Source of the DNA: Poseidonia sp.
Lineage (GTDB): Archaea > Thermoplasmatota > Poseidoniia > Poseidoniales > Poseidoniaceae
DNA length: 64,000 nucleotides
Assembly (NCBI GenBank): GCA_965661285.1
Contig: CBFIDD010000001.1
Location: 500,852 to 564,851 of the forward strand
Direction of reading: 5' to 3'
The translations under genes were made by a program, and so were the position numbers. The notes below the pieces were generated by a model. It made no database searches and had not been told where the DNA came from. It was given only the letters and a program-made list of their open reading frames with translations. This document shows, in pieces, positions 7,796 through 49,230 of this stretch. Within the stretch, counting starts at the first letter, position 1. Every line of letters begins with the position of its first letter.

Positions 7796-7866
7796 CCTCC
7801 ATGCACGAATTTCGGTCACAGTGCTGTTCCGGAGGATTTTTTGAGGGAATGCCCACCATGCCAATC

Positions 7867-19595: not shown

Positions 19596-19736
19596 GGTGG
19601 TCACCCGACATTTCCCTGTACGGATTCCATCGCATTTGAATGATGCCCTTTCACGGCAACCCACCAAATCTCCAAATTGAACCATGACAGGGGAGCATTC
19701 AAGGCCTCCAACGGCTTGGTGAGGACAGGTGAAGGC

Positions 19737-20129
19737 ATGAGCGAAGAGGGGACCTTCTTTGGACGACTTTGGGCCAAACAACATGGAAAACAATTCGGCA
19801 TCAGTGCCGTTGCGGCTGGGGCCAGTGCCACACTCCTGGTGGCCTGCATGTACCAGATTCTCTTCCTTCAGGACCACGCCGACTGGAACGAATTCACTGG
19901 AGCCGCCATCATCGGTTCCGTCGCCTCCCTCATCGTCTTCCTCATCTCGTTTCCAGAATACCTGCGTTTCAAAGGCTATGTCTCGGAACTTGAGGAATTG
20001 AAGGACATCCAGTCAACGGCCGAACTTCGCCGCAGGAAAGCCGACGGTGACGAAGCCGCTGAAGCCTTGGGAGCGGGGCATCTCGAGCAGTGGAAAGCAT
20101 TCCTTGATAGTCGCGGCGTGAAGCGGTAA
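19737..20129 (+). CDS. Small membrane protein (possibly DUF3198-like)
   Basis: 2 TM plus a helical C-terminus; AGGTGA SD upstream. The family assignment is tentative. Confidence 0.7.
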   Translation: MSEEGTFFGRLWAKQHGKQFGISAVAAGASATLLVACMYQILFLQDHADWNEFTGAAIIGSVASLIVFLISFPEYLRFKGYVSELEELKDIQSTAELRRRKADGDEAAEALGAGHLEQWKAFLDSRGVKR

Positions 20130-25478: not shown

Positions 25479-28400
25479 ATGTCCACGAAGGCGACCAGCC
25501 TCGCTTTTGTGGGCTTGTTGCTGCTCTCCCTCTTCCCGTACACACCCTTCGATAACACCGAGGAGGTTTTTCGCCAACCGGCGCTTGGAGACGCCTTGTT
25601 TTCTGGCTTCACGGTTGGCGGTGCTGACGATGTTTGGAACCAAACGCCGTGGCAAAGCATCGCCGTGCCCGAGGGGTTCTCCTACGAATCCGTGATCGAC
25701 TACAGCGATGTTGGGGTGCTCATCAACAACCTCTCGGAAGAAAGTCGTACCATCGGTTGGGCCTTTGTCGCAGCGAGAAACATCTCGCTTGACCGCGTTT
25801 TCCTCTTCAACGCCTCGGGAACACCAACCGGCGAGACCATCAACAGAAACCAATTCACCACCTATTTCGCAACCCCCTTCCTCGACATGTTACAGAACCG
25901 CACCACGGTGAATGGACTCAACTACCTCGTCACCACCAAGGGGATGCCGCTGCGCGTTTCGGGCGGCAACAACAAGGCCAGTTTCGACCAAGAATTCTCG
26001 CTCTTGGGCGGGGCGTACAACAACTCCATCGGCGGTGATTATTGGGTCACCCACGGCTATGGACCGCTTGCCGGAAAGGCGATGGAACCGTTCACGCGAA
26101 GCAAGTACGGGTTCTTCCTCGTCACCCGACTGACCGGCTACACCGTCGACACAGCGCTCGGCCTTATCGAACGCGCCAACCAAAGTCTCGGACAGCGAGG
26201 CACCTTTGTCTTGGACTTGGCCACCAACCGAAACAATTCGGGCTACAAATTCTGGAACGACGACCTCTACACGGCCAACACAACGCTCAGCCAAGGACTC
26301 GGCTTGCCTGTTCAATTTGATGAAGAAACAGAATTTTTGACCAACATCTCCAACGTCATGGGCTACGCATCGTGGGGAAGCAACGATGGGAATTGGAACA
26401 AAAATTACCTCCCAAACAGCGGATTTGACACGCTGGACACCTCGTGGCAAAGCGGTTCGCGATACTGGACGCACACCTCACCCACCGTGTCGCCTGAGGA
26501 TGCGTTCAACTGGTCGTACCAGACGGATGTGAAACAAGGCGGTAACGGCGCCTTTGAAGCCAGCCTGCGCACCGACTGCGACCAGGACGGCGGAAAAGGC
26601 ATGCAGGGCATTTACGGCGAATATTTTGACAACGACGGCGTCAGTTTCAGCGCCTCAACCATGCCGTCGCTCATCGACCGAAGTCCCGACCGCGTCCAGG
26701 TAGAACCTCATCTCAACCACGGTTCGTCCAACAACGCCTACCCCGGGCTTGACGACCGGTTCAAGACCCACTGGGGAGCGCGCTGGAGTGGGCTAATCGA
26801 TGTTCCTGAGACCGGAAATTGGACCTTTTTCATCAACTCCGACGACGGATCAGAGCTTTGGGTCAACGGTGAATCTCTTGCGACCAATTACGGCATGCAC
26901 GGCATGCGTGAACGTTCAGGCTCCCTCAATTTGACCGAGGGGCTTCATGAATTCCGCATTGAGTTCTTCCAAGGCGGTGGACCTCACGGCCTCATTTTTT
27001 CCTGGCAGGGACCAAACACGAGCAAAGCCGCTGTACCGCCATCTGCGTTCTACGTCGCCAGCCATGGTGTACCCGAATCCTCGAGGCTCGTCCACCACTG
27101 GGCCTTTGAAGACGGTTCGGGAACAACCGCCCTCGACAACGGCACGGATGCGGCCAACATGACGCTGACGGGCATGGACAACAGCAACTGGAGGGCCTGT
27201 GCAGACGGTTCCTGTCTGTGGTACGACGGAACCAATGACATGGCAAAGGTGAACGTGGACGACTGGTACGGGAACATGACGGTGAGTCAGTGGGTTTGGG
27301 CGAACACCTCAGCGCAATCCACCTATGCCTCGACCTTTGCTGTTGACGACCAAGCGGGCTCGAACCTGTCCTTCCAGCACATGATCTCCAGCAATAAATG
27401 GCGATTGCACAACAACCAGACCAGGGTCTTTGGGGACGTGGTCGCCCAGCGCTGGACCCATCTCGTTACCGTGTTTGACGATGGTGATATTCGGCAGTAC
27501 ATGGACGGCGTCTTGGTGAATAACGGCGTCTACCCCAACGGCTCGTTCAACAACATCGACCTGTACAAATTGGGCGTTAATCGGGCTGGAAACGCCTACT
27601 TTGAAGGCATGATCGACGAAGTCATGGTGTGGGATGTTGCGCTTGATGACGATGACATCACCACGCTACGTCGCACCATTATCGACAATTGCACCTCGTA
27701 TTCGGGGGCCGGAAACAACGTCGCCTCACTTGAGACCACCTTTGCTGTGCCAAGCCACCTCATGGACCATGCATGGAACATCTACGTCTATGGAAAGCGG
27801 GACGGTGAAGTGAACGGTGCGTTCCGATTGCATGTCGATGGCGTGGACACCAACGGGACCGTTCTCTCAACCAACACCTCCAGCGTCAAGACGTTCACAA
27901 CAAGTTGGGCCACGCAAACCATGCGCATGCGACCGCATGCCAGTGCAACCGAGTTGACCATCAATGTTCAACTCGACATTGAATCAACCTCGACGGTGGG
28001 TTCGCTTTATGTCGATTCGGTGATCCTGAGAGCCATACGGCCGCACATGGATTGGGTCAACGGTTCCATCGCCGATACGGCCGTCTCCACGGGGGGGCGC
28101 TCGTTCAACTGGGGGACGAGTTATGGGCAGTCGCTCATTGCGGACCTTCTCGAAGACGGGGTGTCGGGTGTCAAAGGCTACGTCTACGAACCGTACCTCA
28201 CGGCCGTTGGCCTTCCCAGCACCTTCCTTCCGACCTATGCTTCGGGCTACAACCTCGCCGAGAGTCACGCTGCCGCCAACCTCTACACGGGTTGGATGGG
28301 CGTGGTGGTTGGCGACCCCAAAATGGCACCTTACATCGATGTCGTTCACGACGTCAACCTCCTCGGCGTCCGTAGCGTTGGCGACGTCAACCAAGGCGAA

Positions 28401-30773
28401 ACCACCACGATTGAAGTGGCTGTGGAGAACCTGGGGATGGCTGCGTCAAACGGCACGCTTGAGATTCGTACCGTTCTCGGAAACACCCTCCTGAACATGA
28501 CCCAACTCAACCTCCCTTCCGGAGATGCAGAGGGGAGCCGAACCACGGTGAACGCGACCGTGGTGCCGCCGACGGATGGCTTGCTCGATTTACGTGTCCG
28601 ATACACGAACGCAAGCCCGGAGAGAAACTATGGCAACAATCTCCTTTCGTTCTCTGTGGACGTCAATGCCCCACCGGAAATTCTTGACGTGTATTGCAGT
28701 GCTTCGGCGCTTTCTCGAGGCGAGTACACCATCTGTTCGGTGGAGGTGAGCGATGATAAGGGCGTCACGAACGTGACCCTCGACTGGCAAATTCTCGGGC
28801 AAAACGAGAGCGTGAACACGTCCCGGTGGTCCACGCTGTACATGGGGTCGGTAAGCCCCACGCTCTGGGAGACTTCCCTGGTGATCCCGACCGACGCAAT
28901 GCTCGGGTCGGTCGCGCTGCAAGCCTTCGCCCGAGACGCCAGCAACATGACGCACATCTTCCTCGTGGAGAACGCCACGCGTGTGGTTGACGCACCGCGA
29001 ACGTGGTACGGCATCCACGTATCAGGGGTGGACCCGCCCAGTTGGAACAACGCCTCAATGTTGCCCAACCGTCCTTCCGTTGGCCTGTACCGACACAAAA
29101 CACATGCCCTGACCGCTTGTGTCATGGACGCCGATTACGAAGCCAACACGCCTGCTCCGTTCTTTTTAACCTCAAGAGGCACTGTTGGAAACGCCATCCT
29201 TCTTCCACAAACTGCGGCTCATCTCTACTGCTATGAAACGTCAATTACCCTCGAAACCGGAAGCGGATTGGACGACGTGGACATTGAACTGCGCGACGCA
29301 GCTGGGTCACTGCTGCTCCAAAGAACCGTCTGTGTGGCCGATAAGGCCCCAGAGGTGATCGTCTCCGTGGAGTCTGTCTCGGGACAACCGCTTGACCGGG
29401 TTGTGGGCGATGGTGATGAATTTGTGCGTATTACGGTGGAGGATGTTGACGACCCGCATACACCCTTTGTGGGTGATCTCACCATCCAATGGCCGGGAGG
29501 CGAGCCCATTCAGTTGCCCCTCGACATCGCCGGGTCGGAGAATTCGACCGTCATCCAACTTGACCAGGTGTTGATTCCGCTCGAGGCGGGGGAACTGACC
29601 TTGAGCACCACGGGCCGCGGCCAACACGGGGCGACAGCCAGCACCACGCTCAACCTTCCGTTCCTTCTCACGCCGCCAAAGATTGAGATGTTTGAGGCGT
29701 GCGATGAAAACGGCGTGGTCCGCAACATGACCTTCGGTCAAATCGCCACGCTGGTGGTGGTCGTCTCGAGCGACCGACCGCTTCAGTCCACAACGGCACA
29801 ACTGACCCAATCGGGATGGGCCATCAACGCACCGACGATGGACGCCCCTGTTTGGGGTGAGGGCGAAGCCCCCGCCTCATGCAGCATGACCGGGGCTGAA
29901 ACGGATGAATGGACAACGTTGTATCTCCGACTCAAACTGGACAACTCGCTTGTGGACGGCCCGGGCAAGGTGATTTTCTCAACGGCAGACCTTGACGGAC
30001 TTGTCCGGTCTCAATCGCTTGAGTTGATGTTCCAGCACGCCCCGACCATGCTCGAAAACCTCACGTTCTCTGAGGCCACTCCGGGCCTTGACCTCTACAC
30101 CAACCTCACCGTGACTGATTTGGACGGATTGGACCGCGTGGTCTGTGCGTTCAACCTCTACGATGCCGGCGATGCCTTGCTGACGACATTTGTAACCCAG
30201 GCTGGCCCTGAGGGTGTCTTCACGAACGCATTGTCGTACCGTTATCCATTGACGGCCGGCCTGGCCAACATGACGTTGGAAGCGAACATCACCTGCCTGG
30301 ATAGTTTGCAGCAGTCGTTTTTCCTCAACGCCACGGTTGAAATCGGTGAGGCCCCCCAGTGCATCGATTGCAGCGCAACGGAAAATACAACGTCGCTACC
30401 GACGACCGAAGGGAGCGCATCAGACCTCACCTTCGTGCTGCCCTTGGCTCTGCTCGCCTCCATTCTTGCCCTAACAGGTTGGTTTGTGAGGCGACGGGGA
30501 GGCGTGCATGAGGATGCGGTTTGGAGCATGGGCGAAACCGAACCGATCGTCAACACCGAGATGTTGTTTGACAGCATGGAAACCGAAGGGCTGTTGGAAG
30601 CGACCGTTGAGGACGAACGTCCCGATATCGTACCCGAAGGTTGGTCCGTTGAGGATTTCAAGCGTTGGTTGGACGGCCCGGTTCCGGACGGTTGGTCGGA
30701 GGAACAGTGGGTTCAGTACGTCAAGGCGTCAACCTCGGCCTTGGAAACGCACGCATCCAAAGCGGAAGGGTGA
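25479..30773 (+). CDS. TIGR03790-family surface protein with PA14, LamG and CARDB-like domains and a C-terminal TM
   Basis: LVTTKGMPLR, LVTRLTG, GYASWGSND; PA14 (NSDDGSELWVNG, IEFFQGGG); LamG (FEGMIDEVMVWD); GVKGYVYEPYL..VVGDP; TM plus tail. Confidence 0.88.
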   Translation: MSTKATSLAFVGLLLLSLFPYTPFDNTEEVFRQPALGDALFSGFTVGGADDVWNQTPWQSIAVPEGFSYESVIDYSDVGVLINNLSEESRTIGWAFVAARNISLDRVFLFNASGTPTGETINRNQFTTYFATPFLDMLQNRTTVNGLNYLVTTKGMPLRVSGGNNKASFDQEFSLLGGAYNNSIGGDYWVTHGYGPLAGKAMEPFTRSKYGFFLVTRLTGYTVDTALGLIERANQSLGQRGTFVLDLATNRNNSGYKFWNDDLYTANTTLSQGLGLPVQFDEETEFLTNISNVMGYASWGSNDGNWNKNYLPNSGFDTLDTSWQSGSRYWTHTSPTVSPEDAFNWSYQTDVKQGGNGAFEASLRTDCDQDGGKGMQGIYGEYFDNDGVSFSASTMPSLIDRSPDRVQVEPHLNHGSSNNAYPGLDDRFKTHWGARWSGLIDVPETGNWTFFINSDDGSELWVNGESLATNYGMHGMRERSGSLNLTEGLHEFRIEFFQGGGPHGLIFSWQGPNTSKAAVPPSAFYVASHGVPESSRLVHHWAFEDGSGTTALDNGTDAANMTLTGMDNSNWRACADGSCLWYDGTNDMAKVNVDDWYGNMTVSQWVWANTSAQSTYASTFAVDDQAGSNLSFQHMISSNKWRLHNNQTRVFGDVVAQRWTHLVTVFDDGDIRQYMDGVLVNNGVYPNGSFNNIDLYKLGVNRAGNAYFEGMIDEVMVWDVALDDDDITTLRRTIIDNCTSYSGAGNNVASLETTFAVPSHLMDHAWNIYVYGKRDGEVNGAFRLHVDGVDTNGTVLSTNTSSVKTFTTSWATQTMRMRPHASATELTINVQLDIESTSTVGSLYVDSVILRAIRPHMDWVNGSIADTAVSTGGRSFNWGTSYGQSLIADLLEDGVSGVKGYVYEPYLTAVGLPSTFLPTYASGYNLAESHAAANLYTGWMGVVVGDPKMAPYIDVVHDVNLLGVRSVGDVNQGETTTIEVAVENLGMAASNGTLEIRTVLGNTLLNMTQLNLPSGDAEGSRTTVNATVVPPTDGLLDLRVRYTNASPERNYGNNLLSFSVDVNAPPEILDVYCSASALSRGEYTICSVEVSDDKGVTNVTLDWQILGQNESVNTSRWSTLYMGSVSPTLWETSLVIPTDAMLGSVALQAFARDASNMTHIFLVENATRVVDAPRTWYGIHVSGVDPPSWNNASMLPNRPSVGLYRHKTHALTACVMDADYEANTPAPFFLTSRGTVGNAILLPQTAAHLYCYETSITLETGSGLDDVDIELRDAAGSLLLQRTVCVADKAPEVIVSVESVSGQPLDRVVGDGDEFVRITVEDVDDPHTPFVGDLTIQWPGGEPIQLPLDIAGSENSTVIQLDQVLIPLEAGELTLSTTGRGQHGATASTTLNLPFLLTPPKIEMFEACDENGVVRNMTFGQIATLVVVVSSDRPLQSTTAQLTQSGWAINAPTMDAPVWGEGEAPASCSMTGAETDEWTTLYLRLKLDNSLVDGPGKVIFSTADLDGLVRSQSLELMFQHAPTMLENLTFSEATPGLDLYTNLTVTDLDGLDRVVCAFNLYDAGDALLTTFVTQAGPEGVFTNALSYRYPLTAGLANMTLEANITCLDSLQQSFFLNATVEIGEAPQCIDCSATENTTSLPTTEGSASDLTFVLPLALLASILALTGWFVRRRGGVHEDAVWSMGETEPIVNTEMLFDSMETEGLLEATVEDERPDIVPEGWSVEDFKRWLDGPVPDGWSEEQWVQYVKASTSALETHASKAEG

Positions 30774-30806: not shown

Positions 30807-31043
30807 ATGGCGATTGGATACGTTCTCATCAATGTGCAACCGGGTATGGAACAACGCGTGTACGAGGGGGTCAAAGCGCTCCCGCACGTAACCGATGCTA
30901 CCGTGTTGTTTGGCGACCACGATCTCATTGTCAAGTTGGAAGCCGATGATTTGGCTACCATCGCAAAAGCCGTCGTGGAACATATTCGTTCTGTGGATGG
31001 CGTGGTCAACACCAAAACCCTCGCGGGCGCAGATCTCGATTAA
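30807..31043 (+). CDS. Lrp/AsnC ligand-binding domain protein (stand-alone)
   Basis: GYVLINVQPG..VLFGDHDLIVK..IRSVDGVVNTKT; no HTH. Confidence 0.88.
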   Translation: MAIGYVLINVQPGMEQRVYEGVKALPHVTDATVLFGDHDLIVKLEADDLATIAKAVVEHIRSVDGVVNTKTLAGADLD

Positions 31044-31150
31044 GCCTGTCAAAACCGGGCCACTGAGTAGATATCCGTTCAAAATACGCTCTCGGAATGG
31101 GGTACTGAGCGGCATATGTGGCGCAGTAATGCCTTTTTTCGGGGAAATCA

Positions 31151-31185
31151 TTATATGCTCAACGGTACAAGGCGTACTCGGAGGT
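31151..31185 (+). promoter_or_regulatory. TATA box and Shine-Dalgarno of the MC1 gene
   Basis: TTATAT at 31151-31156 preceded by purine-rich GGGGAAA; GGAGGT at 31180-31185. Confidence 0.6.
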
Positions 31186-31191
31186 AATCCA

Positions 31192-31458
31192 ATGTCAGAC
31201 GGAAAGAAATACTTCGTTCTCATGGAGAACGGAAAAGACACGAGCCAGGTATTTGCGAGCAAACAACCCCGCGGTGCAGCCTTGAAGGCCGCAACCCGCG
31301 GACATGAGACCATCCGCCTACGAGAACGTGGCACCAAGCGTGTCCACGTCTTCAAGGGCAGCATCACGATGGTCCCAAAGCCTGCTGGCGGACCTGACTG
31401 GCTGCCAGATATGATCAAGAAGGCCAACGTCAAGAAGCAAGGCATCGAGCACCTTTGA
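31192..31458 (+). CDS. Non-histone chromosomal protein MC1
   Basis: KYFVLM..VFASKQPRGAALKAATRG..IRLRERGTKRVHVFKG..PDWLP..KANVKKQG matches the MC1 family; 88 aa. Confidence 0.93.
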   Translation: MSDGKKYFVLMENGKDTSQVFASKQPRGAALKAATRGHETIRLRERGTKRVHVFKGSITMVPKPAGGPDWLPDMIKKANVKKQGIEHL

Positions 31459-31654: not shown

Positions 31655-32740
31655 ATGAACAGACGAGAGATGCGAACGCCACAACCAAAGGCGCGTAAGC
31701 CAAGTCAAATGCGGCTGGCTGAAGAGAAACTCTCACTTCCTGCACGACTCACCCATCTTCGCCATCTTCCTTGGTTGTCATGCTATCAACGTCAACTCCA
31801 AACCGAAAACAAATCGGAAAACACACAAAAATCCTACTTTTACGGCCTGCGCCCGCTGATCGAGACCGTGCTGCCAGGCGAAGATGTGTTGAGTGAAGAG
31901 GCCTACAAACAACTGTCCATCGAAGCCCTCGCCGAACGCATGGAGCCGATGAAGGGACGATTGGACCTCTGGGCGCACAGCATCGCTGGCCTTCGGCCGA
32001 CGACCTACAATGCTCGTCTGGCTGCGGCGCGACACCTCATCAAGTGGCTTGGTTTGCTCTGGCCCGACCATTTACAGCGCGCTCGTACTGGAAAACGACT
32101 CCCTCGCACCCTAACCCGAAGAGAATTGACGACCGTGCTGGAGACCGCCGACGTGAGCGAGAATCCGGCTGCTTCCCTCGTGGTCACCATGATGCTTGAC
32201 ACCGGTTTGCGGGTGAGCGAAGTGTGCGAGTTGAACATCGAAGACATTGATTTTGACGATGGTTCTGCGCGCGTTCTTGGCGGCAAAGGTGACAAAGACC
32301 GTTTGGTCTTGTTTACCGCACGAACCTTGGCTCGCTTGCAAGCATGGATGCCGATACGCACACGATTGGCGCCAGCGGAGGAACAAGCCTGTTTTGTCAA
32401 TCGTCACGGTCGACGGTTGCAACCCCGAGGGGTGCAACGCATGATGGATGCACTCGGCCAAGAAGCGGGTTTGCCCAAAGGAAAACTCACACCGCACGTG
32501 CTGCGCCACAATTTCGCCACCGGCTTGTTGGAGCGAGGGGCCGACTTGGTCACGATTCAACGGCTGATGGGGCACGCCACCATTGCCACCACTCGCGTCT
32601 ATCTCGAAATCTCTGACCAAACCCTCCGTGAGGTCTACCATCGGGCGCAATCCATGCGTGAAGACATGGACGATTCGCCCATTGAAACCATCCCCGTCGA
32701 AGAGACCACCCCGTCAACGAGCACCCACGGCGTGGTGTGA
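31655..32740 (+). CDS. xerA: XerA (XerC/D-family) tyrosine recombinase
   Basis: KRLPRTL, DTGLRVSE, GKGDKDR, TPHVLRHNFAT, LVTIQRLMGHATIATTRVY (R-K-H-R-H-Y set). Exact start uncertain. Confidence 0.9.
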   Translation: MNRREMRTPQPKARKPSQMRLAEEKLSLPARLTHLRHLPWLSCYQRQLQTENKSENTQKSYFYGLRPLIETVLPGEDVLSEEAYKQLSIEALAERMEPMKGRLDLWAHSIAGLRPTTYNARLAAARHLIKWLGLLWPDHLQRARTGKRLPRTLTRRELTTVLETADVSENPAASLVVTMMLDTGLRVSEVCELNIEDIDFDDGSARVLGGKGDKDRLVLFTARTLARLQAWMPIRTRLAPAEEQACFVNRHGRRLQPRGVQRMMDALGQEAGLPKGKLTPHVLRHNFATGLLERGADLVTIQRLMGHATIATTRVYLEISDQTLREVYHRAQSMREDMDDSPIETIPVEETTPSTSTHGVV

Positions 32741-40981: not shown

Positions 40982-41965
40982 ATGGTAGCAGAAGATACTG
41001 TCTTTGCTGTTCTCTATGATAAGTTCATGTTTTGGTCCATTCTGGTCGGAATTTTTACTTTCGGCTGGTTGTTTTTGGCCATGCTTCGCTATCGAGACGG
41101 CGTCGAGCCCGATACCACACAAATCGACCACATCGAGGTGGGTTCGTTCCCGGTCGACCGACACAACACCAAACTTGAGGTGTTTTTCTACGTCCTGCCG
41201 ACGGCCATCGTTGCGTGGCTCATCGTCCTCGCCCTCTCATCCAACACGGCGGTTTGGGTCATCCCTGAGGAAGCCGAAGCTCACGACATGAAAATCATCG
41301 GCAAGCAGTGGTTCTGGGAATACGAGTATAAAGACGCCCTGACATGGGAAGACGACCCCGCCATCACCTACATCGACGTTGACTGGAGCGGTACGGCCCT
41401 GACCGTGTCAAGTACCAACGCTGCTGCGGTGAATGTTTCCATTCAGAAAGGTGCAGATTCCCTTCCAGGGAAGTCGCTTGACACTGTAACAGGAGATGCA
41501 CTCATCGAGGAGACCTTTGACCCCTACAAGCATTCCATCGTTGAGGTAACCGACGCAGACGGAAACGTGCTCCACACCTGGATGCACATCCCTAAGCAAC
41601 ACGTGTTCTCCTCTGCCCTTGGCGAAGACATGATTCTTCCTTGCGATGAGGCGGTCGTGTTTGAGATGCACTCCGCCCCCTCTGACGACTCTAACCCCAA
41701 CTACATCGGCGTCCAGCATTCGTTCTGGCTCCCTGAATGGGGCGTCAAAGAAGACTTGGTGCCCGGCATCGAAGGTGGCACCTACATGACCATCACCGCC
41801 GACGACCCCGGCACCTTCCCCATCCGTTGTGCAGAGTACTGTGGCAACCAGCACTCCATGATGATCGGTCAAGTCAAGATCGTCGCCGCTGAAGGCACCG
41901 ATTGTTCGGTTGACACCGGCGTCAAGAAGAGTGGCGAGTCGCCCCCTGCTGGAGGTGCGTACTGA
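40982..41965 (+). CDS. coxB: Cytochrome c oxidase subunit II with ~100-aa insert
   Basis: 2 TM; GKQWFWEYEY; CuA ligands VQHSFW and CAEYCGNQHSMM. Confidence 0.93.
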   Translation: MVAEDTVFAVLYDKFMFWSILVGIFTFGWLFLAMLRYRDGVEPDTTQIDHIEVGSFPVDRHNTKLEVFFYVLPTAIVAWLIVLALSSNTAVWVIPEEAEAHDMKIIGKQWFWEYEYKDALTWEDDPAITYIDVDWSGTALTVSSTNAAAVNVSIQKGADSLPGKSLDTVTGDALIEETFDPYKHSIVEVTDADGNVLHTWMHIPKQHVFSSALGEDMILPCDEAVVFEMHSAPSDDSNPNYIGVQHSFWLPEWGVKEDLVPGIEGGTYMTITADDPGTFPIRCAEYCGNQHSMMIGQVKIVAAEGTDCSVDTGVKKSGESPPAGGAY

Positions 41966-44286
41966 TGCGAGGTCGTGTCACGCTCCTGCTCGGCGTGCTC
42001 TTGGTCGCATTGATGGCCGCACCTCAATTCACAGCTGCTCCCGGCGGCATTGGCTCTGCCGGCGACCAAGGTTGTACCTGTCACGGCGGTGCCTCCCCCG
42101 ACACCACGGTTCTCGTGGACGGCCTCCCTGAAACCTACAACGCCAGCGAGACGTACACCTTCACCGTCACCGTGCAAAACGACGTAATGGAAATCAACGA
42201 GGTCGACTGGAACGGACGAGCCGGTGGATTCCGCATCCTCGCGTCCCACGGCGACATCACCGCCGTGCCCGAATCCTACAGCCAAATGATGGACGGTGGA
42301 CTCACCCACACGGAAGAAGCCAACACCGTTCGCTCGTGGACCTTCGAATGGACCGCTCCCGCTGCTGACGACCTCAACGTCGAGATGACCATTTACGGCA
42401 ACGCTGTGAACGGTGGAAACGGTGCTGGAGGCGACCACTGGAACGTCGCCACCGTCGCCGTCGCAGGGATCAATGCTGGCGCCGTTGCAGCCAGTGCCAG
42501 CGCCCTTGTGATTTTCCTGACCTCCATTGGACTCGCTGCCGGCCTCATCTTTGCGGGTATCTTGTGGGTGTTCTACCGCCGCTCACCCGAGACCTTCACC
42601 ATGGAACGGTTCTGGAGCTTCCTTAAGCCGTGGCTGACCACAACCGACCACAAAGAAGTCGGCATCATGTACTTCCTGTTCGGGTTCTTCTTCTTCCTCG
42701 TTGGTGGACTGTTGGCCCTGCTCTTCCGCATTCAGTTGGCGCTGCCTGAGAACGATTTCCTCACCTACGACGAGTACAACTCCTTCTTCACGCTGCACGG
42801 AACGACGATGATTTTCCTCGCCGCCATGCCGATGATTGCTGGATTCATGAACTACATCCTCCCGCTTCAAATCGGCGCCAAAGACCTCGCTTTCCCACGC
42901 ATCAACGCCATGGGTCTGTGGTTGCTCGTCTTCTCCGCACCCCTCATTTTCACCGGCGTCTTTTCAGGTGAGGGTGCTGACATCACGTGGGTCATGTACC
43001 CGCCCTATTCCTCACTCAACGAGGCAAACCTCGGGTCAACCCTCGCCGATTACGGTTCGAACCCCGGCACAACGGCGTTCATTTCAGGCATGCTCATGCT
43101 CGGTGCTTCCTCGACCTTGGGCGGTGTGAACTTCATCACCACCGTGTTCACCATGCGTGCGCCCGGTGTGACGTGGATGAAGATGCCGCTGTTCACCTGG
43201 TCGGTCTTCATCAGCGTGTTCATGCTCTTCATGTCCCTGCCCGCACTCATCATCGGTGTGGCCTTCCTTCTGTTTGACCACACCATCGGAACGCAGTTCT
43301 TCGTTGCCGGGGGCGACCCGTTGCTCTTCCAACATCTGTTCTGGTTCTTCGGCCACCCCGAAGTCTACGTCGTCATCGTGCCGGCCTTCGGTATCGTTTC
43401 AGAGGTGCTCGCCACCTCCGCACGCCGCTCCATCTTCGGCTACAAATCGATGGTGTTCGCCATGGCCGGTATTGGTATCGTCGGTTTCATCGTGTGGGGC
43501 CACCACATGCTAACCTCCGGTATGGACCCGTTCTGGCGTGCGCTTTTCATGATCATGACCATGCTCGTCGCCATCCCGACCGGTGCGAAGATCTTCAACT
43601 GGCTCGCCACCCTGTGGGGCGGCTCGCTGGTGATGAAAACCCACACCCTCTGGTCGTTGGGCTTCCTGGTCACCTTCACGCTGGGTGGTATCTCAGGTAT
43701 GTTCTTTCCCGTGGCTGGTCTTGACATCCACTTCCACGATTCCTACTTCGTGGTGGCTCACTTCCACTACGTGTTCATCGGTGGTACCGTCTTTGCCCTG
43801 TTCTCTGCTGTCTACTACTGGTTCCCGAAGGCCACTGGACGCAAACTCAACGAAACCCTCGGACTGTGGCACTTCCTCATCGGCTTTGCCTCTTACAACG
43901 CTGCCTTCTGGCCCATGCACGCCCTAGGTATCATGGGCATGCCTCGACGAACCCACACCTACACCATTGAATCCGGCTTTGCAGAATACAACATGGCCGT
44001 CTCGACCTTCGCCTTCATCTTCGGTATCAGCCAACTTCTGCTTGTCTGGAACATCATATACTCTGCACGACGTGGAGAACCCGTGGGCAAGGACCCATGG
44101 GGCGGCTGGTCCCTCGAATGGTCCACGACCTCCCCGCCGCCGACGCCTTCTTTCCACGACATTCCTACGCAGTACGATAAGAATGAGGAATTCGGTCATC
44201 ACAAGGACGAACCGTCCTTGATGGACAGGCTGGTGAAAGCAGAACCGAAAGGTATTGTCGTCGGTCATGTGGAGGGAGAAGAATGA
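41965..44286 (+). CDS. coxA: Cytochrome c oxidase subunit I (A1 type) with N-terminal secreted Reeler-like domain
   Basis: TTTDHKEVG, TLHG, D.AFPRIN, WFFGHPEVY, WGHHM, PTGAK, FHDSYFVVAHFHYV, GMPRR; ~220-aa N-terminal extension. Confidence 0.95.
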   Translation: MRGRVTLLLGVLLVALMAAPQFTAAPGGIGSAGDQGCTCHGGASPDTTVLVDGLPETYNASETYTFTVTVQNDVMEINEVDWNGRAGGFRILASHGDITAVPESYSQMMDGGLTHTEEANTVRSWTFEWTAPAADDLNVEMTIYGNAVNGGNGAGGDHWNVATVAVAGINAGAVAASASALVIFLTSIGLAAGLIFAGILWVFYRRSPETFTMERFWSFLKPWLTTTDHKEVGIMYFLFGFFFFLVGGLLALLFRIQLALPENDFLTYDEYNSFFTLHGTTMIFLAAMPMIAGFMNYILPLQIGAKDLAFPRINAMGLWLLVFSAPLIFTGVFSGEGADITWVMYPPYSSLNEANLGSTLADYGSNPGTTAFISGMLMLGASSTLGGVNFITTVFTMRAPGVTWMKMPLFTWSVFISVFMLFMSLPALIIGVAFLLFDHTIGTQFFVAGGDPLLFQHLFWFFGHPEVYVVIVPAFGIVSEVLATSARRSIFGYKSMVFAMAGIGIVGFIVWGHHMLTSGMDPFWRALFMIMTMLVAIPTGAKIFNWLATLWGGSLVMKTHTLWSLGFLVTFTLGGISGMFFPVAGLDIHFHDSYFVVAHFHYVFIGGTVFALFSAVYYWFPKATGRKLNETLGLWHFLIGFASYNAAFWPMHALGIMGMPRRTHTYTIESGFAEYNMAVSTFAFIFGISQLLLVWNIIYSARRGEPVGKDPWGGWSLEWSTTSPPPTPSFHDIPTQYDKNEEFGHHKDEPSLMDRLVKAEPKGIVVGHVEGEE

Positions 44287-45638
44287 GTGGCGGAGAAGCT
44301 CACGTTGAGAACAGCGTTTGGATGCGCGCCGTCTTGATCGGTGGCGTCTTCCTCGCCATCGGTATCCTCGCCTTCGCCACCATGGGCGTTGGTGTGGCCA
44401 ACATCAAACACCACGATTATGACGTCGCCATTGAGGAGTATGAGGACGCCAAGTACGCTTACGAAGACGCCAAAGCCAACGGTGCCAGCGAATCGGAAAT
44501 CAAATCCCTTAAGGAAGCCAAGGAAGAAGCGCACCACCATGAAATAGAAGCCCATCTATCTTACTTAACGTGGCGAACAGCAGGCATTACCATCCTGCTG
44601 ATGTGCATCACCTATGCAGCCTTCATGGGCCTGGGTGGCTTCATGAACTCGATTTATCCCGACGATGCCGGTCATGACGACCACGGCTACGGTGGCGATG
44701 ACCACGAGCACCACGGTTCAGGCTCGCCGATCGTGTTCTCGCTGGGTATTCTGCTCTTCTTGATGGGCTTCCCGTCCTTCCAAGGCGTGCTTGGTAACTT
44801 GCTTTCCGGCGTGGATGCCAACCTTAGCGACCTGGGTTTGAGCATGCTCGGCCTGGTGGTTGTCACCGCCGGTGTTGCCAACTGGTGGCGTGAAGACCTG
44901 CCGTTTATCGGCAATCACGAGCAAATTGCGACCTCCGATCCCTTTGAAGGTCAACACATCCGCAAGGCCGGCCTTTGGGTCTTCATTATGTCCGAAGTGA
45001 TGGTTTTCGCCACCTTCTTCTCGTCCTACCTCCGCATGCGCACAGAATGGTGCACAGGCTGGCAGGTCAACGCTGGAAATTGTGAGGAAGTGAACATGCT
45101 CACGGCCTCCGATTTCCTTCGACCCAACGGCGCCATGCTCGACGGACTGGGTGGACAAGGCGACTTCATGACGCTCTTACCCGGTGCCATCAACACCTTT
45201 GCGCTCATCATCTCCTCCTACACCATCGTGCTGGCCCTCAAGACGGCCAAGGACAAGGAGTGGACGGCCCCCTCAGGATTCATGGGCAAGCTGATGCCAA
45301 CCCGAAAAGTCGCTGTCCGAAACTACCTGCTCGCTACGTTCATTCTGGGTTCGATGTTTATTGTGCTGAAGCTCATTGAATGGAGCCATCTCGTTGCAGA
45401 AGGCTTCACCATCGGAACCCAAGCGGGCTCCATCTTCTACATCTCAACTGGCGCTCACGGCGTGCACGTCTTTGTCGGCTTGCTCGTGATGCTGTACTTG
45501 ATTTTCAAGGCAGGCTTTGCTGGAGACGATGTTGAATATGACGAGAGAAACGCTCAGGGCATCGAATACTTCGGTTTGTACTGGCACTTTGTCGACTTGG
45601 CTTGGGTGGTTATCTTCCCGGCCTTCTATCTGTATTGA
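44283..45638 (+). CDS. coxC: Cytochrome c oxidase subunit III with His-rich N-terminal extension
   Basis: NWWRED, GLWVFIMSEVMVFATFF, NTFALIISS, TGAHGVHV, GLYWHFVDLAW. Confidence 0.92.
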   Translation: MSGGEAHVENSVWMRAVLIGGVFLAIGILAFATMGVGVANIKHHDYDVAIEEYEDAKYAYEDAKANGASESEIKSLKEAKEEAHHHEIEAHLSYLTWRTAGITILLMCITYAAFMGLGGFMNSIYPDDAGHDDHGYGGDDHEHHGSGSPIVFSLGILLFLMGFPSFQGVLGNLLSGVDANLSDLGLSMLGLVVVTAGVANWWREDLPFIGNHEQIATSDPFEGQHIRKAGLWVFIMSEVMVFATFFSSYLRMRTEWCTGWQVNAGNCEEVNMLTASDFLRPNGAMLDGLGGQGDFMTLLPGAINTFALIISSYTIVLALKTAKDKEWTAPSGFMGKLMPTRKVAVRNYLLATFILGSMFIVLKLIEWSHLVAEGFTIGTQAGSIFYISTGAHGVHVFVGLLVMLYLIFKAGFAGDDVEYDERNAQGIEYFGLYWHFVDLAWVVIFPAFYLY

Positions 45639-45647
45639 GGTGAGATC

Positions 45648-46043
45648 ATGGGAGAACACGAAACAACTGGAATCTTGGAATCAATTGTTGAAAAACTGCC
45701 GGGTGGCTACGACATCTACTTTTGGAACTTCGTCATCTTGATGTTCTTCACGCTGTTCGAAGTCGCCGCCGTTTTCTTTGAGAAGATCCCCGGTACGGAC
45801 ATTGAAATTTCGCTCTACGCTGTTTGGGCTATCTTGATTGGCGTTGGTGTCATCAAGGGCTACGGCATCGCTGCCTACTTCATGCACTTGAAGGGCGACC
45901 CCCGTATCTACACCCGAACAGCGCTGTTCCCCGTGCTCTTTGTCTTGTTGATGCTTTGGGGTATCGGACTTTCCAACCCGGGTTCTGTCCAAGCGCTTCC
46001 CGACTGGTGCACGCCCAACTGGGAGTTTGCTAGCCAACGCTGA
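45648..46043 (+). CDS. Cytochrome c oxidase subunit IV family
   Basis: 3 TM; FTLFEV and AYFMHLK motifs; position in the cox operon. Confidence 0.85.
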   Translation: MGEHETTGILESIVEKLPGGYDIYFWNFVILMFFTLFEVAAVFFEKIPGTDIEISLYAVWAILIGVGVIKGYGIAAYFMHLKGDPRIYTRTALFPVLFVLLMLWGIGLSNPGSVQALPDWCTPNWEFASQR

Positions 46044-46052
46044 GGGTCAACC

Positions 46053-47579
46053 ATGCGAGCCAGCCAAAAAGCACTGGCCGTACTGATGCTCTCGGTTCTC
46101 CTGATGGCGCCCGCTTCTGCCTATCTTGGTAAACAGTTGGCACGCGGTCCGGTAGATGACTTCACGCTCCTCGACCACAAGGGCGAGTCGTACACCTTTG
46201 GAACGGACGCTGAAGGCGTGGTCGTCGTTTCGTTCATCTTCACCCGATGTCCGGATGTTTGTCCGGTGCTGACGCAGAAATTGATTGCAGTGGACGGGGA
46301 ACTCAGCGATGAGGAGCGGGAGGACGTCACCTTCGTTTCCATCAGCGTTGACCCCGACCACGATACGCCAGAGGTGCTCATGGAATACACCGAGCGCATG
46401 GGTGCGTCATGGCCGCATCTCACCGGTTCAACCGAAGAGATGCAACCGATTTGGGACATGTTTGGGGTGGTGGTTCAACAAAACGTCATCGACATGCACG
46501 TGATGGAGTACCAGCCCGGTGAAGCCTCCGTCACCGTGGTGGACACCGGCAACAACAGTTCTCAACACATGTTCGCTTGGTCGGGATGGAGCATCACACA
46601 AACGATGGCATCGACGGCCAATTTGAGCCTCAACACCTCCGTGCACAGCGAATACGGAACCACCGTCCACGGCATCAACGGCGTGGATTCACCGTCCGAC
46701 TGGTCGTGGTGGTGGGAGCTCAACCTTTGGAATGCCACCAACAGCTCCTGGGAACCATCCGATGTTGGCGTGGACAGCGTGGACGGGTTGGACCATCCAC
46801 ACATCGCCTGGTTGCCCTCAAACGGCAATCGAAGTGCGCTTTCGCCACCCCACGATGACCATGCGACAAGCTTGAGTGTGCAGTGGCCCAACGGTACGCA
46901 AGAACAGTTCGGGCAGGAGGCGTTCAACGCCTACCACATCACGCAAGGTGCGCTCAACGGGGCCGACGTGAACACGTCCATTGAACTCACAACCTACGGA
47001 CACTACCTCTCAAGCCTCGGTGACGAAGACGCCCCTGACGATTATGCGTGGTGGTGGAACCTCTACGGATGGAATGCAACCGACGAAATGTGGGAATCCT
47101 CCAGCGTCGGCATGGACGATTTCAGCGAACCGCTGCACCTCGCTTGGGCACCCTCCTACACCAATGCCTCAACCATACCAGCCCCAACCGTTGAAGCCTC
47201 TGATGAAACGGTCTGCAACGGACATGGATGGGAAATGGGCAGCGGCGAATCAAAGCACTGCATGTGCGACAGCGGCTACATCTGGGCCGAGGACGACCAG
47301 TTGAGTTGCGTGCCCGAAACCACCGAGGAATACAACGTGGGCCATTCCACCATCACCTACATTCTCAACGATGATCTTGAACCAACCGTGGCATGGACCG
47401 GCGATGCTTGGCGCGTCGAAGACTTCACGGCCGACGTGAGAGAACTCCTTGAGAAGGAACAATTGGGTGGCTACGAAGCCGGTGTGGTGCCCTCAATTTC
47501 GTTGTTGATGACCACCATCGCACTGCTTTCAGCCACTGTTTTCCTTGGCGCACGCCGAGATGAGACGGACGAAGAGTAG
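46053..47579 (+). CDS. SCO/SenC copper chaperone with two inserted DUF4430-like domains and an EGF-like module
   Basis: DFTLLDHKG, FIFTRCPDVCP, ISVDPDHDTP, WPHLTG, ~275-aa insert, YNVGHSTITYIL; C-terminal TM. Confidence 0.88.
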   Translation: MRASQKALAVLMLSVLLMAPASAYLGKQLARGPVDDFTLLDHKGESYTFGTDAEGVVVVSFIFTRCPDVCPVLTQKLIAVDGELSDEEREDVTFVSISVDPDHDTPEVLMEYTERMGASWPHLTGSTEEMQPIWDMFGVVVQQNVIDMHVMEYQPGEASVTVVDTGNNSSQHMFAWSGWSITQTMASTANLSLNTSVHSEYGTTVHGINGVDSPSDWSWWWELNLWNATNSSWEPSDVGVDSVDGLDHPHIAWLPSNGNRSALSPPHDDHATSLSVQWPNGTQEQFGQEAFNAYHITQGALNGADVNTSIELTTYGHYLSSLGDEDAPDDYAWWWNLYGWNATDEMWESSSVGMDDFSEPLHLAWAPSYTNASTIPAPTVEASDETVCNGHGWEMGSGESKHCMCDSGYIWAEDDQLSCVPETTEEYNVGHSTITYILNDDLEPTVAWTGDAWRVEDFTADVRELLEKEQLGGYEAGVVPSISLLMTTIALLSATVFLGARRDETDEE

Positions 47580-47622: not shown

Positions 47623-47708
47623 GCAGTCGTCGCATAGCCTGGTATTGCGCCGGATTTGAAATCCGGTGTCCCCGTGACTCGGGAGTTCAAATCTCTCCGA
47701 CTGCGCCA
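47623..47708 (+). tRNA. tRNA-Ser (anticodon UGA), encoded CCA, no intron
   Basis: Acceptor GCAGTCG/CGACTGC, D-arm TAGCCTGGTA, anticodon arm CCGGA-TTTGAAA-TCCGG, long variable arm, T-arm GGGAG-TTCAAAT-CTCTC, G discriminator plus CCA. Confidence 0.96.
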
Positions 47709-47766
47709 CTCCGATATCGACAAAAATCAGGGAAGACTTCTCAAACTCCACCCGCTCTCTCGGGGT

Positions 47767-49230
47767 ATGCGCAGAGGTACCCTCGCCATCTGTCTCATCG
47801 CCAGCATGCTTCTGGCTGGTTGCCTCGGACCCTCAACAGCCGAATGGGGAACGGGTTCGGGAGCGGTCCAGGTGGACTTCGCCATGGATGGCACCACCGT
47901 CAAAAGCACCTTGCTTGGTGAGTCTCGAACCGTAAGCGACCTGCTCCCGGTCGGTTGCACACCCGGAACAGAAGGCGGCACACTCGAAGCCGGTGCCGGC
48001 AGCCCCATCACGTTCACAGGCTATCTTGCTGCAAGTCAGTTTTACGACGCGCACGACAGCGTGATGGGCGCCCGGGGTCTTGACGTTGGTGTCACAACTG
48101 CGGTTGCGATACAGTCCATGCCCTTTGATGCGGCCGCCTCGGTGGTTGATGGCGAAGGCGCTCGAATCGATGTCAAGCAATGGGCGCTCCCCCTCCAGCC
48201 CGACACGGGTGCGGGAAGCGTTGACATCGATGAAGTCGATTCGGAGTCCGAAACCGATTGGTTTGTCCTCGGACTGATTCCAACCACGGAAAATCTCCTT
48301 GACGGCATGAAGGCCTTGGGCGAGTGGCATCAACCCGTGACGGTTCACGGTTACCTCGTATCTGCAGCCAACTCGAGTCAAAACGCCTACGGGTACCAAG
48401 CCACATGGCACAAAGCCAGCAACGAATGCGCATTGACGGTTGGATCGACCAACAAGGAAGACGCCTACGTGCTTGTCTCAAAGATTTCTCTCGACGGCGC
48501 CACCGTTTCAGCCAACGGTGAAGCGGACGACGAATGGGTTCAGGGTGATGTGCCCTTCCTCGGTCGAGGCGGATTCATCATGTTCTTCCTCATTGCTGGC
48601 CTTGGCGGTGCCGTCGGCCTGTTCATCGTCTCCAAACAGATGATGATGGGGGCAGCCCAGAAGAATATGCGGATCCTCATCGGCGACGAGGGCATGAAGA
48701 AGGCGGCCAGTGTCAAAAAGGACGCCAAGGCTGCCAAGAAGGCAGGTATGGAATCGCCTGAAGATCGTCAACGCCGGCAACAACGCGAACGTCAACAAGT
48801 CGAAAAAGAACAGAAGAGAAAACAACCCCCAGCAAAGAGCGAACCCAAGAAGAAGGACGAAGACGCCTTGGGTGGATTTGACCTTGACAGCGTGCTGGCA
48901 TCAACCTCATCGGGCGGACCCGGCGGTTCTGCCCCCAAAGGCCGAAAGAGTTCGGTGGTCGTCACCGAGGCGGCTCAAGAAATGGAACACATGAATGCAC
49001 AACAAGAGACGACGACCACAACATCATCCCTTCCTGCTTCGTTCTCACAGCAGCGCCGAAGTGCACCGCCAACGCAGACACGGTCCGAGCAACCTACAGA
49101 AGCCCCCGCCAAGCCCAAGGTCCGACGTCGGAAGGCCGTGAAGAGGTCTGCTTCCGAACCTGCAGAAGAGCGTGCTCCGCCTGCTGAACACTACGATGAC
49201 GAAGAGGACTTCTCCGACTTCTCGTTCTAG
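47767..49230 (+). CDS. Hypothetical lipoprotein/membrane protein with charged disordered cytoplasmic tail
   Basis: Lipobox-like LAGC, external domain, internal TM, K/Q/E-rich tail ending DFSDFSF. Confidence 0.8.
   Translation: MRRGTLAICLIASMLLAGCLGPSTAEWGTGSGAVQVDFAMDGTTVKSTLLGESRTVSDLLPVGCTPGTEGGTLEAGAGSPITFTGYLAASQFYDAHDSVMGARGLDVGVTTAVAIQSMPFDAAASVVDGEGARIDVKQWALPLQPDTGAGSVDIDEVDSESETDWFVLGLIPTTENLLDGMKALGEWHQPVTVHGYLVSAANSSQNAYGYQATWHKASNECALTVGSTNKEDAYVLVSKISLDGATVSANGEADDEWVQGDVPFLGRGGFIMFFLIAGLGGAVGLFIVSKQMMMGAAQKNMRILIGDEGMKKAASVKKDAKAAKKAGMESPEDRQRRQQRERQQVEKEQKRKQPPAKSEPKKKDEDALGGFDLDSVLASTSSGGPGGSAPKGRKSSVVVTEAAQEMEHMNAQQETTTTTSSLPASFSQQRRSAPPTQTRSEQPTEAPAKPKVRRRKAVKRSASEPAEERAPPAEHYDDEEDFSDFSF

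Follow-up and report, generated by a model that had tools for sequence, protein, structure and literature searches.

The window analyzed here is a 64,000-nucleotide (nt) stretch of DNA from Poseidonia sp., an archaeon of the order Poseidoniales (phylum Thermoplasmatota). At positions 46053..47579 (+) it holds a gene for a SCO-family protein of 508 amino acids (aa), which, as judged by its translated open reading frame (ORF), the family profile and 305 relatives, carries an insertion of ~280 aa in the Sco loop. Few metallochaperones are as well studied as the Sco proteins, whose His loop is at the heart of copper binding; that three modules should be inserted at this site, and conserved there, is unexpected. 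Public annotation describes the split protein simply as "SCO family protein", and the literature searched, which excluded subscription-only papers and supplements, yielded no account of domains inserted into the Sco loop or of a protein joining SCO to DUF4430.

The translated protein can be followed module by module. It begins with a signal-peptide-like segment (residues 1-23, 46053..46121 (+)) that forms a hydrophobic helix at residues 3-18 in the structural model and ends in ...PASA before Y24, A23, Y24 and G26 being conserved. The N-terminal two-thirds of the SCO thioredoxin-like fold, recognized by Pfam and Foldseek, span residues 24-146 (46122..46490 (+)) and include the CxxxC copper/thiol motif, C66-PDV-C70 (46248..46262 (+)). 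At a VIDMH motif ending in H149 (46485..46499 (+)) the chain exits the SCO core into the insert, where hidden Markov models (HMMs), the model, hhalign and fold searches delineate two beta-grasp domains of the DUF4430/transcobalamin-like SLBB type: unit 1, residues 160-272 (46530..46868 (+)), and unit 2, residues 273-386 (46869..47210 (+)), for which an atlas look-up was also used. A 4-Cys knob follows (47214..47309 (+)), defined by the alignment of such modules, by conservation and by two beta-hairpins in the models. The remaining SCO piece, residues 425-468 (47325..47456 (+)), comprises the His strand with H431 (codon 47343-47345 (+)), further strands and the final helix, and the protein closes with a predicted transmembrane anchor (residues 482-506, helical in the model; 47496..47570 (+)) and a charged tail. 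We hold this identity and architecture, i.e., a Sco whose His loop is split by two beta-grasp units and a knob, with high confidence.

The Pfam SCO1-SenC profile (PF02630) matched residues 36-145 with an E value of 3.2e-26 (92.3 bits against a cut-off of 22.8), and all 36 of the 36 relatives scanned matched it too. The match covers profile positions 3-111 of 134 and therefore ends short of the His-bearing end of the family. An earlier note, made from the letters of this DNA alone, had claimed that the SCO fold is interrupted before its conserved His strand, and this proved correct: the fold breaks off behind residue ~146 and is taken up again at ~425 by the canonical His strand. Residues 425-467 aligned with the C-terminal His strand of an uninterrupted SCO of 229 aa (P0187) at 51% identity (E 2e-10), with YNVGHSTITYIL (nt 47331-47366) lying opposite YVVGHSSLTLIL and H431 corresponding to the His of YVVGHSS in P0187. 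Moreover, among 99 collected proteins that matched the window protein (P0001) without covering the units, 14 proteins of 195-308 aa aligned with it in two stretches (query ~24-150 and ~422-467), separated by 7-105 residues in these targets versus ~270 in the window protein. The coordinates and the numbering of C66, C70 and H431 in the earlier note were also accurate, and all three residues are invariant in the 94-sequence alignment of relatives from which our conservation counts were drawn (94/94 each).

Structural comparison gave the same family. When the full-length AlphaFold model (predicted local distance difference test score, pLDDT, 88; 91-95 at residues 430-470) was searched with Foldseek, only SCO/thioredoxin folds were retrieved, with Sco structures on top (2k6v, E 5e-10) and Sco matches extending over 110-118 columns at a root-mean-square deviation (rmsd) of 2-3 Å. 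Longer alignments in this search (144-162 columns) had an rmsd of 12-15 Å and are uninformative on the return of the C-terminal strand to the core. With SCO1/SenC proteins of known structure (Thermus Sco1, 2k6v; human SCO1, 1wp0/2ggt; Bacillus BsSco, 1xzo) the window protein shares the thioredoxin-like core, the FTxCPDVCP/CxxxC motif, the distal ligand His on the Sco loop strand and the linkage to a cox operon with a CuA-bearing subunit II; it differs from them in the ~280 residues (three folded modules) placed in the Sco loop and in an extra conserved His, H149, at the loop entry.

It differs from them also at its termini. Sco proteins usually carry an N-terminal anchor or a lipobox, whereas the hydrophobic N-terminal segment of the window protein, together with its C-terminal helix and charged tail, suggests a protein that is exported behind a signal peptide and anchored to the membrane at its C terminus. 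Some distant relatives end in ...PGFTF.... As a candidate for this anchor we considered PGF-CTERM; its model (TIGR04126) did not match the window protein and matched one of the 36 relatives (23.8 bits against a cut-off of 24.5), and we rejected PGF-CTERM anchoring as a family feature and treated the C terminus as a plain transmembrane anchor. As for H149, which forms part of the VIDxH motif at the core exit, it was present in 88 of the 94 insert-bearing relatives and missing from the uninterrupted P0187; the model has a pLDDT below 50 at residues 147-149, and this His may be an extra ligand or a hinge.

The two Trp-rich units are homologous to each other, as had been surmised, with 39 of 103 residues identical (38%, E 2e-17); a six-frame HMM search at E<=10 found no further copy in the 64-kb window. 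Their assignment to DUF4430 (PF14478) was less direct. The Pfam search of the insert that had been suggested for this purpose returned no match to PF14478, either on the window protein (E<=1) or on its pieces (even at E<=10); of 25 units taken singly, three matched at E<=1 (best 0.0014), as did five of the 36 full-length relatives at E<=0.01 (best 4.5e-5). In an exhaustive search of 1.84 billion proteins, the insert matched the multi-domain protein P0192 (E 1.9e-25), as well as P0218 and P0230, all of which Pfam reads as DUF4430 repeats (E 3.8e-29, 2.1e-13 and 1.4e-13, respectively; four DUF4430 stretches in P0192). Our unit HMMs matched four to five tandem units in each of these proteins, overlapping the stretch that Pfam calls DUF4430. 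Furthermore, hhalign comparison of the 25 units with 12 units of Pfam-recognized DUF4430 proteins gave 99.2% with an E value of 8e-20 over 78 columns. The nearest named clusters of a unit in the atlas look-up were likewise DUF4430 (score 0.90), which we take as a lead only.

Modeled alone, the insert reached a pLDDT of 91.6 and a predicted template modelling score of 0.79, the latter indicating that its modules pack in a defined manner. In a search of the PDB with this model, the first 10 rows were all DUF4430 or cobalamin-carrier beta domains. They came from the stand-alone DUF4430-type structure 3u7z (E 5.9e-3, TMt 0.56), from intrinsic factor and from transcobalamin, whose isolated beta domain (5no0) had a TMt of 0.57; haptocorrin appeared at rank 14. 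These rows are weak (E 6e-3 to 3e-2, rmsd 9.6-15 Å, no matches at E<=1e-3), and their high rmsd is probably due to alignments that cross unit boundaries. The order of secondary structure elements assigned by DSSP in the insert model was beta-beta-alpha-hairpin-beta-beta-beta in both units, and the hairpin after the helix is the feature that defines the transcobalamin-like clade of the SLBB superfamily (PMC1796856); both units thus present a beta-grasp with the hairpin specific to this clade. A profile of the 25 units run against PDB sequences recovered no cobalamin carrier and a single, irrelevant match (5vcm, E 0.48), so the link to cobalamin carriers is visible by fold only. Taken together, the relatives, the profile-profile comparison and the fold lead us to accept both units as divergent DUF4430/transcobalamin-like SLBB members, in agreement with the earlier note.

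Of note, the depositors of 3u7z named it a 'putative metal binding protein', which we rejected as evidence of a metal role: 14 calcium sites can be counted in this structure, non-specifically bound and partly occupied calciums are described in general terms (PMC3975891), and the name appears to derive from such calciums.

While the units share fold and topology, including the hairpin after the helix, with 3u7z and with the beta domains of transcobalamin, intrinsic factor and haptocorrin, they depart from the DUF4430 family in being Trp-rich, rich in NxS/T sequons and mostly below the reach of Pfam, and in sitting inside the loop of another domain, rather than standing alone or at a terminus; unlike the cobalamin carriers, they have no alpha/alpha-toroid partner. 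All 11 sequons of the window protein fall within residues 167-371, whereas 2000 shuffles averaged 3.5 +/- 1.7 and never gave more than 10. The relatives have on average 10.6 sequons within the insert and 1.3 outside it, and N194 is a sequon in 91 of the 94 aligned relatives. This distribution of sequons suggests that the insert is glycosylated.

The knob is built around four Cys residues, C388, C403, C405 and C419 (arranged as C388...C403-M-C405...C419), each found in 93 of the 94 relatives. Three further residues, M395, H402 and M404, were present in 94/94, a degree of conservation equal to that of the Cu ligands of the SCO core, and W393 was present in 90/94. The knob modules of the window protein and of 12 related loci (13 in total) align easily, and the models fold them as two consecutive beta-hairpins that bear a C-x-C-x2-G-Y pattern. 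This pattern resembles the PROSITE EGF signature, and the module had been described in the earlier note as a 4-Cys, EGF-like module; its four Cys stand, whereas the EGF label is weak. EGF domains have six Cys in three disulfides and the knob has four conserved Cys. In addition, the EGF-type Pfam matches of the 13 modules were all below cut-off (ADGRF3_N in 13/13, EGF_Teneurin in 7/13, FXa_inhibition in 7/13 and cEGF in 6/13; best E values 0.0077 for cEGF, 0.022 for EGF_Teneurin and 0.034 for FXa_inhibition), and a knob-module profile found no EGF domain among PDB sequences. With sub-threshold matches only, we did not adopt EGF membership. 'EGF-like' is fair as a description of the modeled shape, since the knob shares the C-x-C-x2-G-Y pattern and the two consecutive beta-hairpins with modules such as cEGF and the teneurin type; its invariant Met/His/Met residues, in contrast, are not EGF features.

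The split architecture is genuine and conserved in the order Poseidoniales, and is not a product of chance or of assembly. A word-indexed search collected 305 proteins at E<=1e-3; the best 120 of these 305 are nearly all ~500-550 aa long, and where one of the best 120 bears a name, it is "SCO family protein [Poseidonia sp.]" or "cytochrome oxidase Cu insertion factor". The exhaustive search gave 53 cluster representatives at E<=1e-30. A survey of Poseidoniales, which had been called for in the earlier note and is the order that it had rightly guessed, found a full-length copy in 12 genomes when contigs of one genome per species were inspected (L001-L012), alongside a shorter, one-unit form (L013) and a copy cut by the contig end (L014).

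To describe how the loop varies, we classified 222 collected proteins with the FTxCxxxC motif, some of which are fragments. Two units plus the knob were found in 131 of them, two units without the knob in 5, one unit plus the knob in 6, one unit without the knob in 7, five units plus the knob in 1 (P0056), the knob without a unit in 1 (P0227) and neither module in 71. P0056 is a variant SCO of 756 aa with some five unit-derived segments and a knob in its loop, and hence the number of units can grow by tandem duplication. Two knob-less proteins place other segments before the His strand: P0138 has a His/Asp-rich run, with 8 His and 15 Asp/Glu in 75 aa, and P0157 has a 2-Cys module followed by a His-rich run. 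Such His/Asp-rich runs of the loop were read directly, without a count, as the heuristic flagged none of them, that of P0138 included. A separate unit-profile census of longer proteins yielded 64 proteins, all of them SCO-type or fragments; it scored the 8000 candidates with the most words in common and is uninformative on other architectures.

The loop can hold other contents as well. An uncultured archaeon encodes a 481-aa SCO (L019:5869-7311 (+)) whose Sco loop holds a related 4-Cys module, then a Redoxin/AhpC-TSA-type domain (CAHC motif; Redoxin E 1.8e-17) and then the His strand, with cox genes nearby on the other strand; the Redoxin-type domain may be a TlpA-like reductase in fused form. 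Sco is known to have a TlpA-type thioredoxin as a partner, which acts on ScoI according to the title of PDB entry 4txo; the window protein itself has no such domain. The presence of a domain of this type in L019 indicates that the Sco loop takes functionally relevant modules and suggests that partner functions can be fused into it. Two further loci (L017 and L020) encode plain SCOs of 225-229 aa with no cox genes within ~5 kb. Judging by these sequences, the Sco loop is a recurrent insertion site in the marine archaea examined.

The genomic setting of the window gene ties it to a CuA oxidase, as the earlier note had supposed in linking it to oxidase assembly. SCO is the last gene of a COX2-COX1-COX3-COX4-SCO series, the junctions of which are overlapping or very short. 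COX2 (subunit II; 40982..41965 (+)), identified by Pfam (COX2, E 8.6e-12) and by alignment to a solved subunit II, bears the CuA motif H...CAEYCGNQHSMM and is the expected client of the Sco; it is followed by COX1 (41965-44286 (+)), COX3 (44283-45638 (+)) and COX4_pro (45648-46043 (+)), all three recognized by Pfam and NCBIfam. The same order is kept in related loci: cox genes lie directly upstream of the insert-bearing SCO in 13 of 14 loci (L001-L014), the other being L002, with only 56 nt upstream. We thus infer that these five genes form a conserved, co-transcribed Poseidoniales operon and that the SCO acts on the CuA site of COX2. PCuAC, CtaG, CtaA, CtaB and cobalamin-related families were all without a match in the 49 ORF translations scanned from the 64-kb window.

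The oxidase subunits have peculiarities of their own. COX1 (773 aa) carries an N-terminal domain of ~165 residues, 'choice-of-anchor V' (NF041895, E 8.3e-26, residues 17-163), before its CtaD core; the domain holds a GCTCHGG motif, and the fusion is kept in related loci. COX2 has, at residues ~120-216 within its cupredoxin domain, ~60 residues more than the Rhodobacter subunit II (query 119-217 against target 127-165), and these extra residues had no family match. COX3 is unusually long (451 aa, with the Pfam match mainly at 344-450), and a stretch rich in His and Asp, DDAGHDDHGYGGDDHEHHGSGS, lies in its N-terminal extension, adding to the metal-ligand-rich segments of this oxidase system.

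The modules of the insert are also found in an unrelated class of metal-handling proteins. The exhaustive search with the window protein matched two proteins, P0154 and P0172, in which Pfam sees ZnuA and EF-hand domains only. A search with P0172 uncovered a large ZnuA-type family, at least 45 members of which carry the unit at i-E<1e-5 (45 of 120 among the matches listed). These unit-bearing ZnuA-type Zn/Mn solute-binding proteins of Poseidoniales are giant, at ~650-1100 aa. In P0293 (989 aa), residues 40-107 (N-lobe) correspond to AdcA 6-73 and residues 802-983 (C-lobe) to AdcA 96-279, which leaves ~690 residues between the lobes; the intervening sequence contains His/Asp-rich runs, EF-hands, Cys modules and one unit at 441-558, and the His-rich segment of AdcA aligns with a His/Asp-rich stretch directly before the conserved DPHSW motif of P0293. 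The one-unit SCO P0157 and P0293 share not only the unit (39% identity over 114 aa, E 7e-26) but also the 2-Cys module (45% over 56 aa, E 8e-8), although their host folds are unrelated.

To place these units relative to one another, we built a tree of 67 units over 124 columns, which included 19 of the 45 unit-bearing ZnuA proteins and 7 one-unit SCOs, L009 being dropped for its X residues. All SCO and ZnuA units fell on one side of a branch with support of 96/98 and the generic multi-DUF4430 units on the other. SCO unit 1 (100/99) and SCO unit 2 (97/87) were each monophyletic, and the duplication accordingly predates the two-unit family.

What, then, might the insert do? Our best explanation, to which we would give somewhat less than an even chance, is that the window protein is a CuA-assembly Sco whose glycosylated loop scaffold presents an extra site for metal capture and hand-off. 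On this reading it would be an assembly factor of the Sco type for the aa3-type haem-copper oxidase of Poseidoniales, acting as a copper chaperone, a thiol-disulfide reductase or both. Exported and held by its C-terminal membrane helix, it would work on the CuA site of COX2, its core behaving as an ordinary Sco that binds Cu via C66, C70 and H431, reduces the cysteines of the COX2 CuA site, or does both (both kinds of Sco chemistry, Cu binding and thiol-disulfide, are described in PMC6696091). The ~280-residue expansion would sit in the Sco loop, i.e., in the hairpin with the ligand His whose closure forms the metal site, with the two tandem, sequon-rich beta-grasp units serving as a rigid glycosylated scaffold. 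The knob, presumably stabilized by two disulfides, would provide a Met/His soft-metal site of the Cu(I) type directly before H431. Such a site could function as an intramolecular capture/hand-off station next to the Sco site, the built-in equivalent of an accessory periplasmic copper donor and not a corrinoid binder. The capture/hand-off role of the insert, taken by itself, we consider possible but doubtful.

Several observations speak for a metal role. As noted, M395, H402 and M404 are as invariant as the Cu ligands, and elsewhere His/Asp-rich or 2-Cys/His-rich segments replace the knob. In addition, the knob occurs without a unit in one SCO (P0227), and in ZnuA-type proteins the unit is set between the lobes before a His/Asp-rich stretch. 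Two known systems offer works-like parallels. The His-rich loop of ZnuA is a metal-capture aid, and ZnuA/AdcA-type proteins resemble the window SCO in having a metal-ligand-rich accessory segment in a loop beside the primary metal site; in Poseidoniales, the ZnuA-type loop even holds a DUF4430-like unit and a 2-Cys module also found in SCO proteins, while the host fold is unrelated and the metal different. CusF has a site of the His/Met/Met/Trp type, and the knob, a small beta module by the Sco site, likewise has a conserved Trp in addition to its invariant Met/His/Met. PCuAC, for its part, has the motif H(M)X10MX21HXM and serves in trans in many bacteria (PMC6696091). The knob is likened to PCuAC and CusF by residue pattern and not by sequence or fold, it is a disulfide-type module of ~32 residues, and its metal binding is putative.

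Other observations weigh against a capture site. Metal binding by the knob and the units is a proposal, and the knob was modeled with a pLDDT of only 58-87. If strands 392-395 and 402-405 pair with each other, the DSSP strings would place W393, M395, H402 and M404 on one hairpin face and C403/C405 on the other. Within the units, invariance falls chiefly on Trp, Gly and Asn, a pattern that fits a structural core better than a ligand site; generic surface proteins of several domains (P0192, P0218 and P0230) are likewise built from related units; and the copy number of the unit varies (1, 2 or 5), as expected of a spacer. There are, moreover, 12 unit-bearing SCO-motif proteins without the knob (7 one-unit and 5 two-unit, some of them maybe fragments). 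In the unit tree, ZnuA units are interleaved with SCO units (4 label changes) and the deeper nodes are moderate (91/57, 84/93) over the 124 columns. Lastly, our survey for a PCuAC-type donor covers the 64-kb window only.

Much of this would be expected if the units and the knob were a glycosylated spacer, shield or envelope-interaction module of Poseidoniales surface proteins, tolerated in exposed loops and devoid of ligand or metal function, an explanation that we judge unlikely yet serious. Its grounds are the surface proteins just mentioned, which combine related units with CarboxypepD_reg domains and a transmembrane anchor, along with the range of one to five unit copies, the strongly enriched and conserved sequons (N194 in 91/94) and the core-type Trp and Gly that make up most of the conserved unit residues; surface SLBB proteins, too, are often joined to polysaccharide-binding domains and may tether to the cell surface (PMC1796856). 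A mere spacer, however, leaves unexplained why M395, H402 and M404 are conserved to the same extent as the Cu ligands (94/94), why two metal-handling folds that are not related to each other both have insertions, with His/Asp-rich runs adjacent, in the loops beside their metal sites, and why the tree separates the SCO and ZnuA units, as one clade, from those of generic surface proteins (96/98).

The insert could alternatively dock onto the lineage-specific additions of the oxidase, either the ~60 COX2 cupredoxin residues or the COX1 choice-of-anchor V domain, and so place the Sco core on its client. The Sco loop takes part in partner recognition. Both additions are kept with the insert-bearing SCO in related loci. 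The loop, which carries the ligand His, becomes a beta-hairpin when Cu is bound (PMC6696091). Nevertheless, docking of this kind cannot account for the same unit in ZnuA-type proteins, and we find it improbable. Less probable still, and in our view very unlikely, is the proposal of the earlier note that the DUF4430 units bind a corrinoid or other tetrapyrrole and thereby couple Cu delivery to cofactor binding. Cobalamin carriers hold their ligand between the beta domain and an alpha/alpha toroid, and such oxidases are not known to receive their haems from the extracellular side, both of which count against it. The units do belong to the transcobalamin-like SLBB clade, and their strand order matches that of the clade hairpin, which in transcobalamin adds contacts to B12 (PMC1796856); a preprint, relying on docking only, also proposes that a transcobalamin-like alpha/beta pair of bacteria binds haem (10.1101/864751). 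Yet the B12 inference for the clade is grounded in its toroid/CbiO/CbiQ context, toroid fusion and SLBB-domain contacts being named for the cobalamin carriers (PMC1796856), and neither an alpha/alpha toroid nor a CbiO/CbiQ-type transporter was found in the protein or in the 49 ORF translations scanned from the window. Zn/Mn-type binding proteins contain the same unit, the 25-unit profile finds no cobalamin carrier among PDB sequences, and the SLBB paper itself suggests that archaeal members may scavenge 'a distinct metabolite' (PMC1796856). The tetrapyrrole proposal thus finds no support here.

Returning to the extra metal site, a broader idea can be put forward, though we regard it as unlikely as a whole: that Poseidoniales possess a 'metal-site loop toolkit' in which a beta-grasp subfamily, Cys modules and His/Asp- or Met/His-rich elements have been spliced repeatedly beside the metal sites of Sco and ZnuA-type proteins. 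In Sco, M395/H402/M404/W393 would thereby form a second Cu(I) site, catching copper that is scarce and organically complexed and passing it on to the CxxxC/His site; this would replace a separate PCuAC-type donor as an adaptation to trace-metal limitation. Copper in sea water is scarce and ligand-bound, and Poseidoniales are among the most abundant archaea of the surface ocean; the modules shared by SCO and ZnuA-type proteins would suggest a general strategy for the acquisition of extracellular trace metals in metal-poor sea water. Prokaryotic DUF4430/SLBB domains, which are poorly understood, gain a new, non-cobalamin context here. Should the knob indeed bind Cu(I), the window protein would offer a naturally fused copper donor and Sco in a single chain, useful for dissecting CuA assembly.

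Turning to the surroundings of the operon, the gene downstream of SCO (47656-49230 (+), 524 aa, likely start 47767) encodes a protein with a lipobox-like N-terminus (…LLAGC), an ectodomain of ~270 aa, one transmembrane helix and a long Lys/Glu/Pro-rich tail. It matched no Pfam or NCBIfam family, and its atlas matches were Thermoplasmatota hypotheticals only. In 10 of the 12 full-length loci a gene of this type lies behind SCO in the same orientation, the exceptions (L005 and L010) ending soon after SCO, and in L013 it is on the opposite strand. Further upstream, the window encodes three large predicted surface proteins, at 7801-11001 (+) (1067 aa, with TSP_3/TIG domains), 14532-19877 (-) (1782 aa, CARDB) and 25479-30770 (+) (1764 aa, PA14 and Laminin_G_3). 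A tyrosine recombinase gene (31655-32737 (+); Phage_integrase, E 1.2e-38) adjoins a gene for an MC1 chromatin protein (30895-31455).

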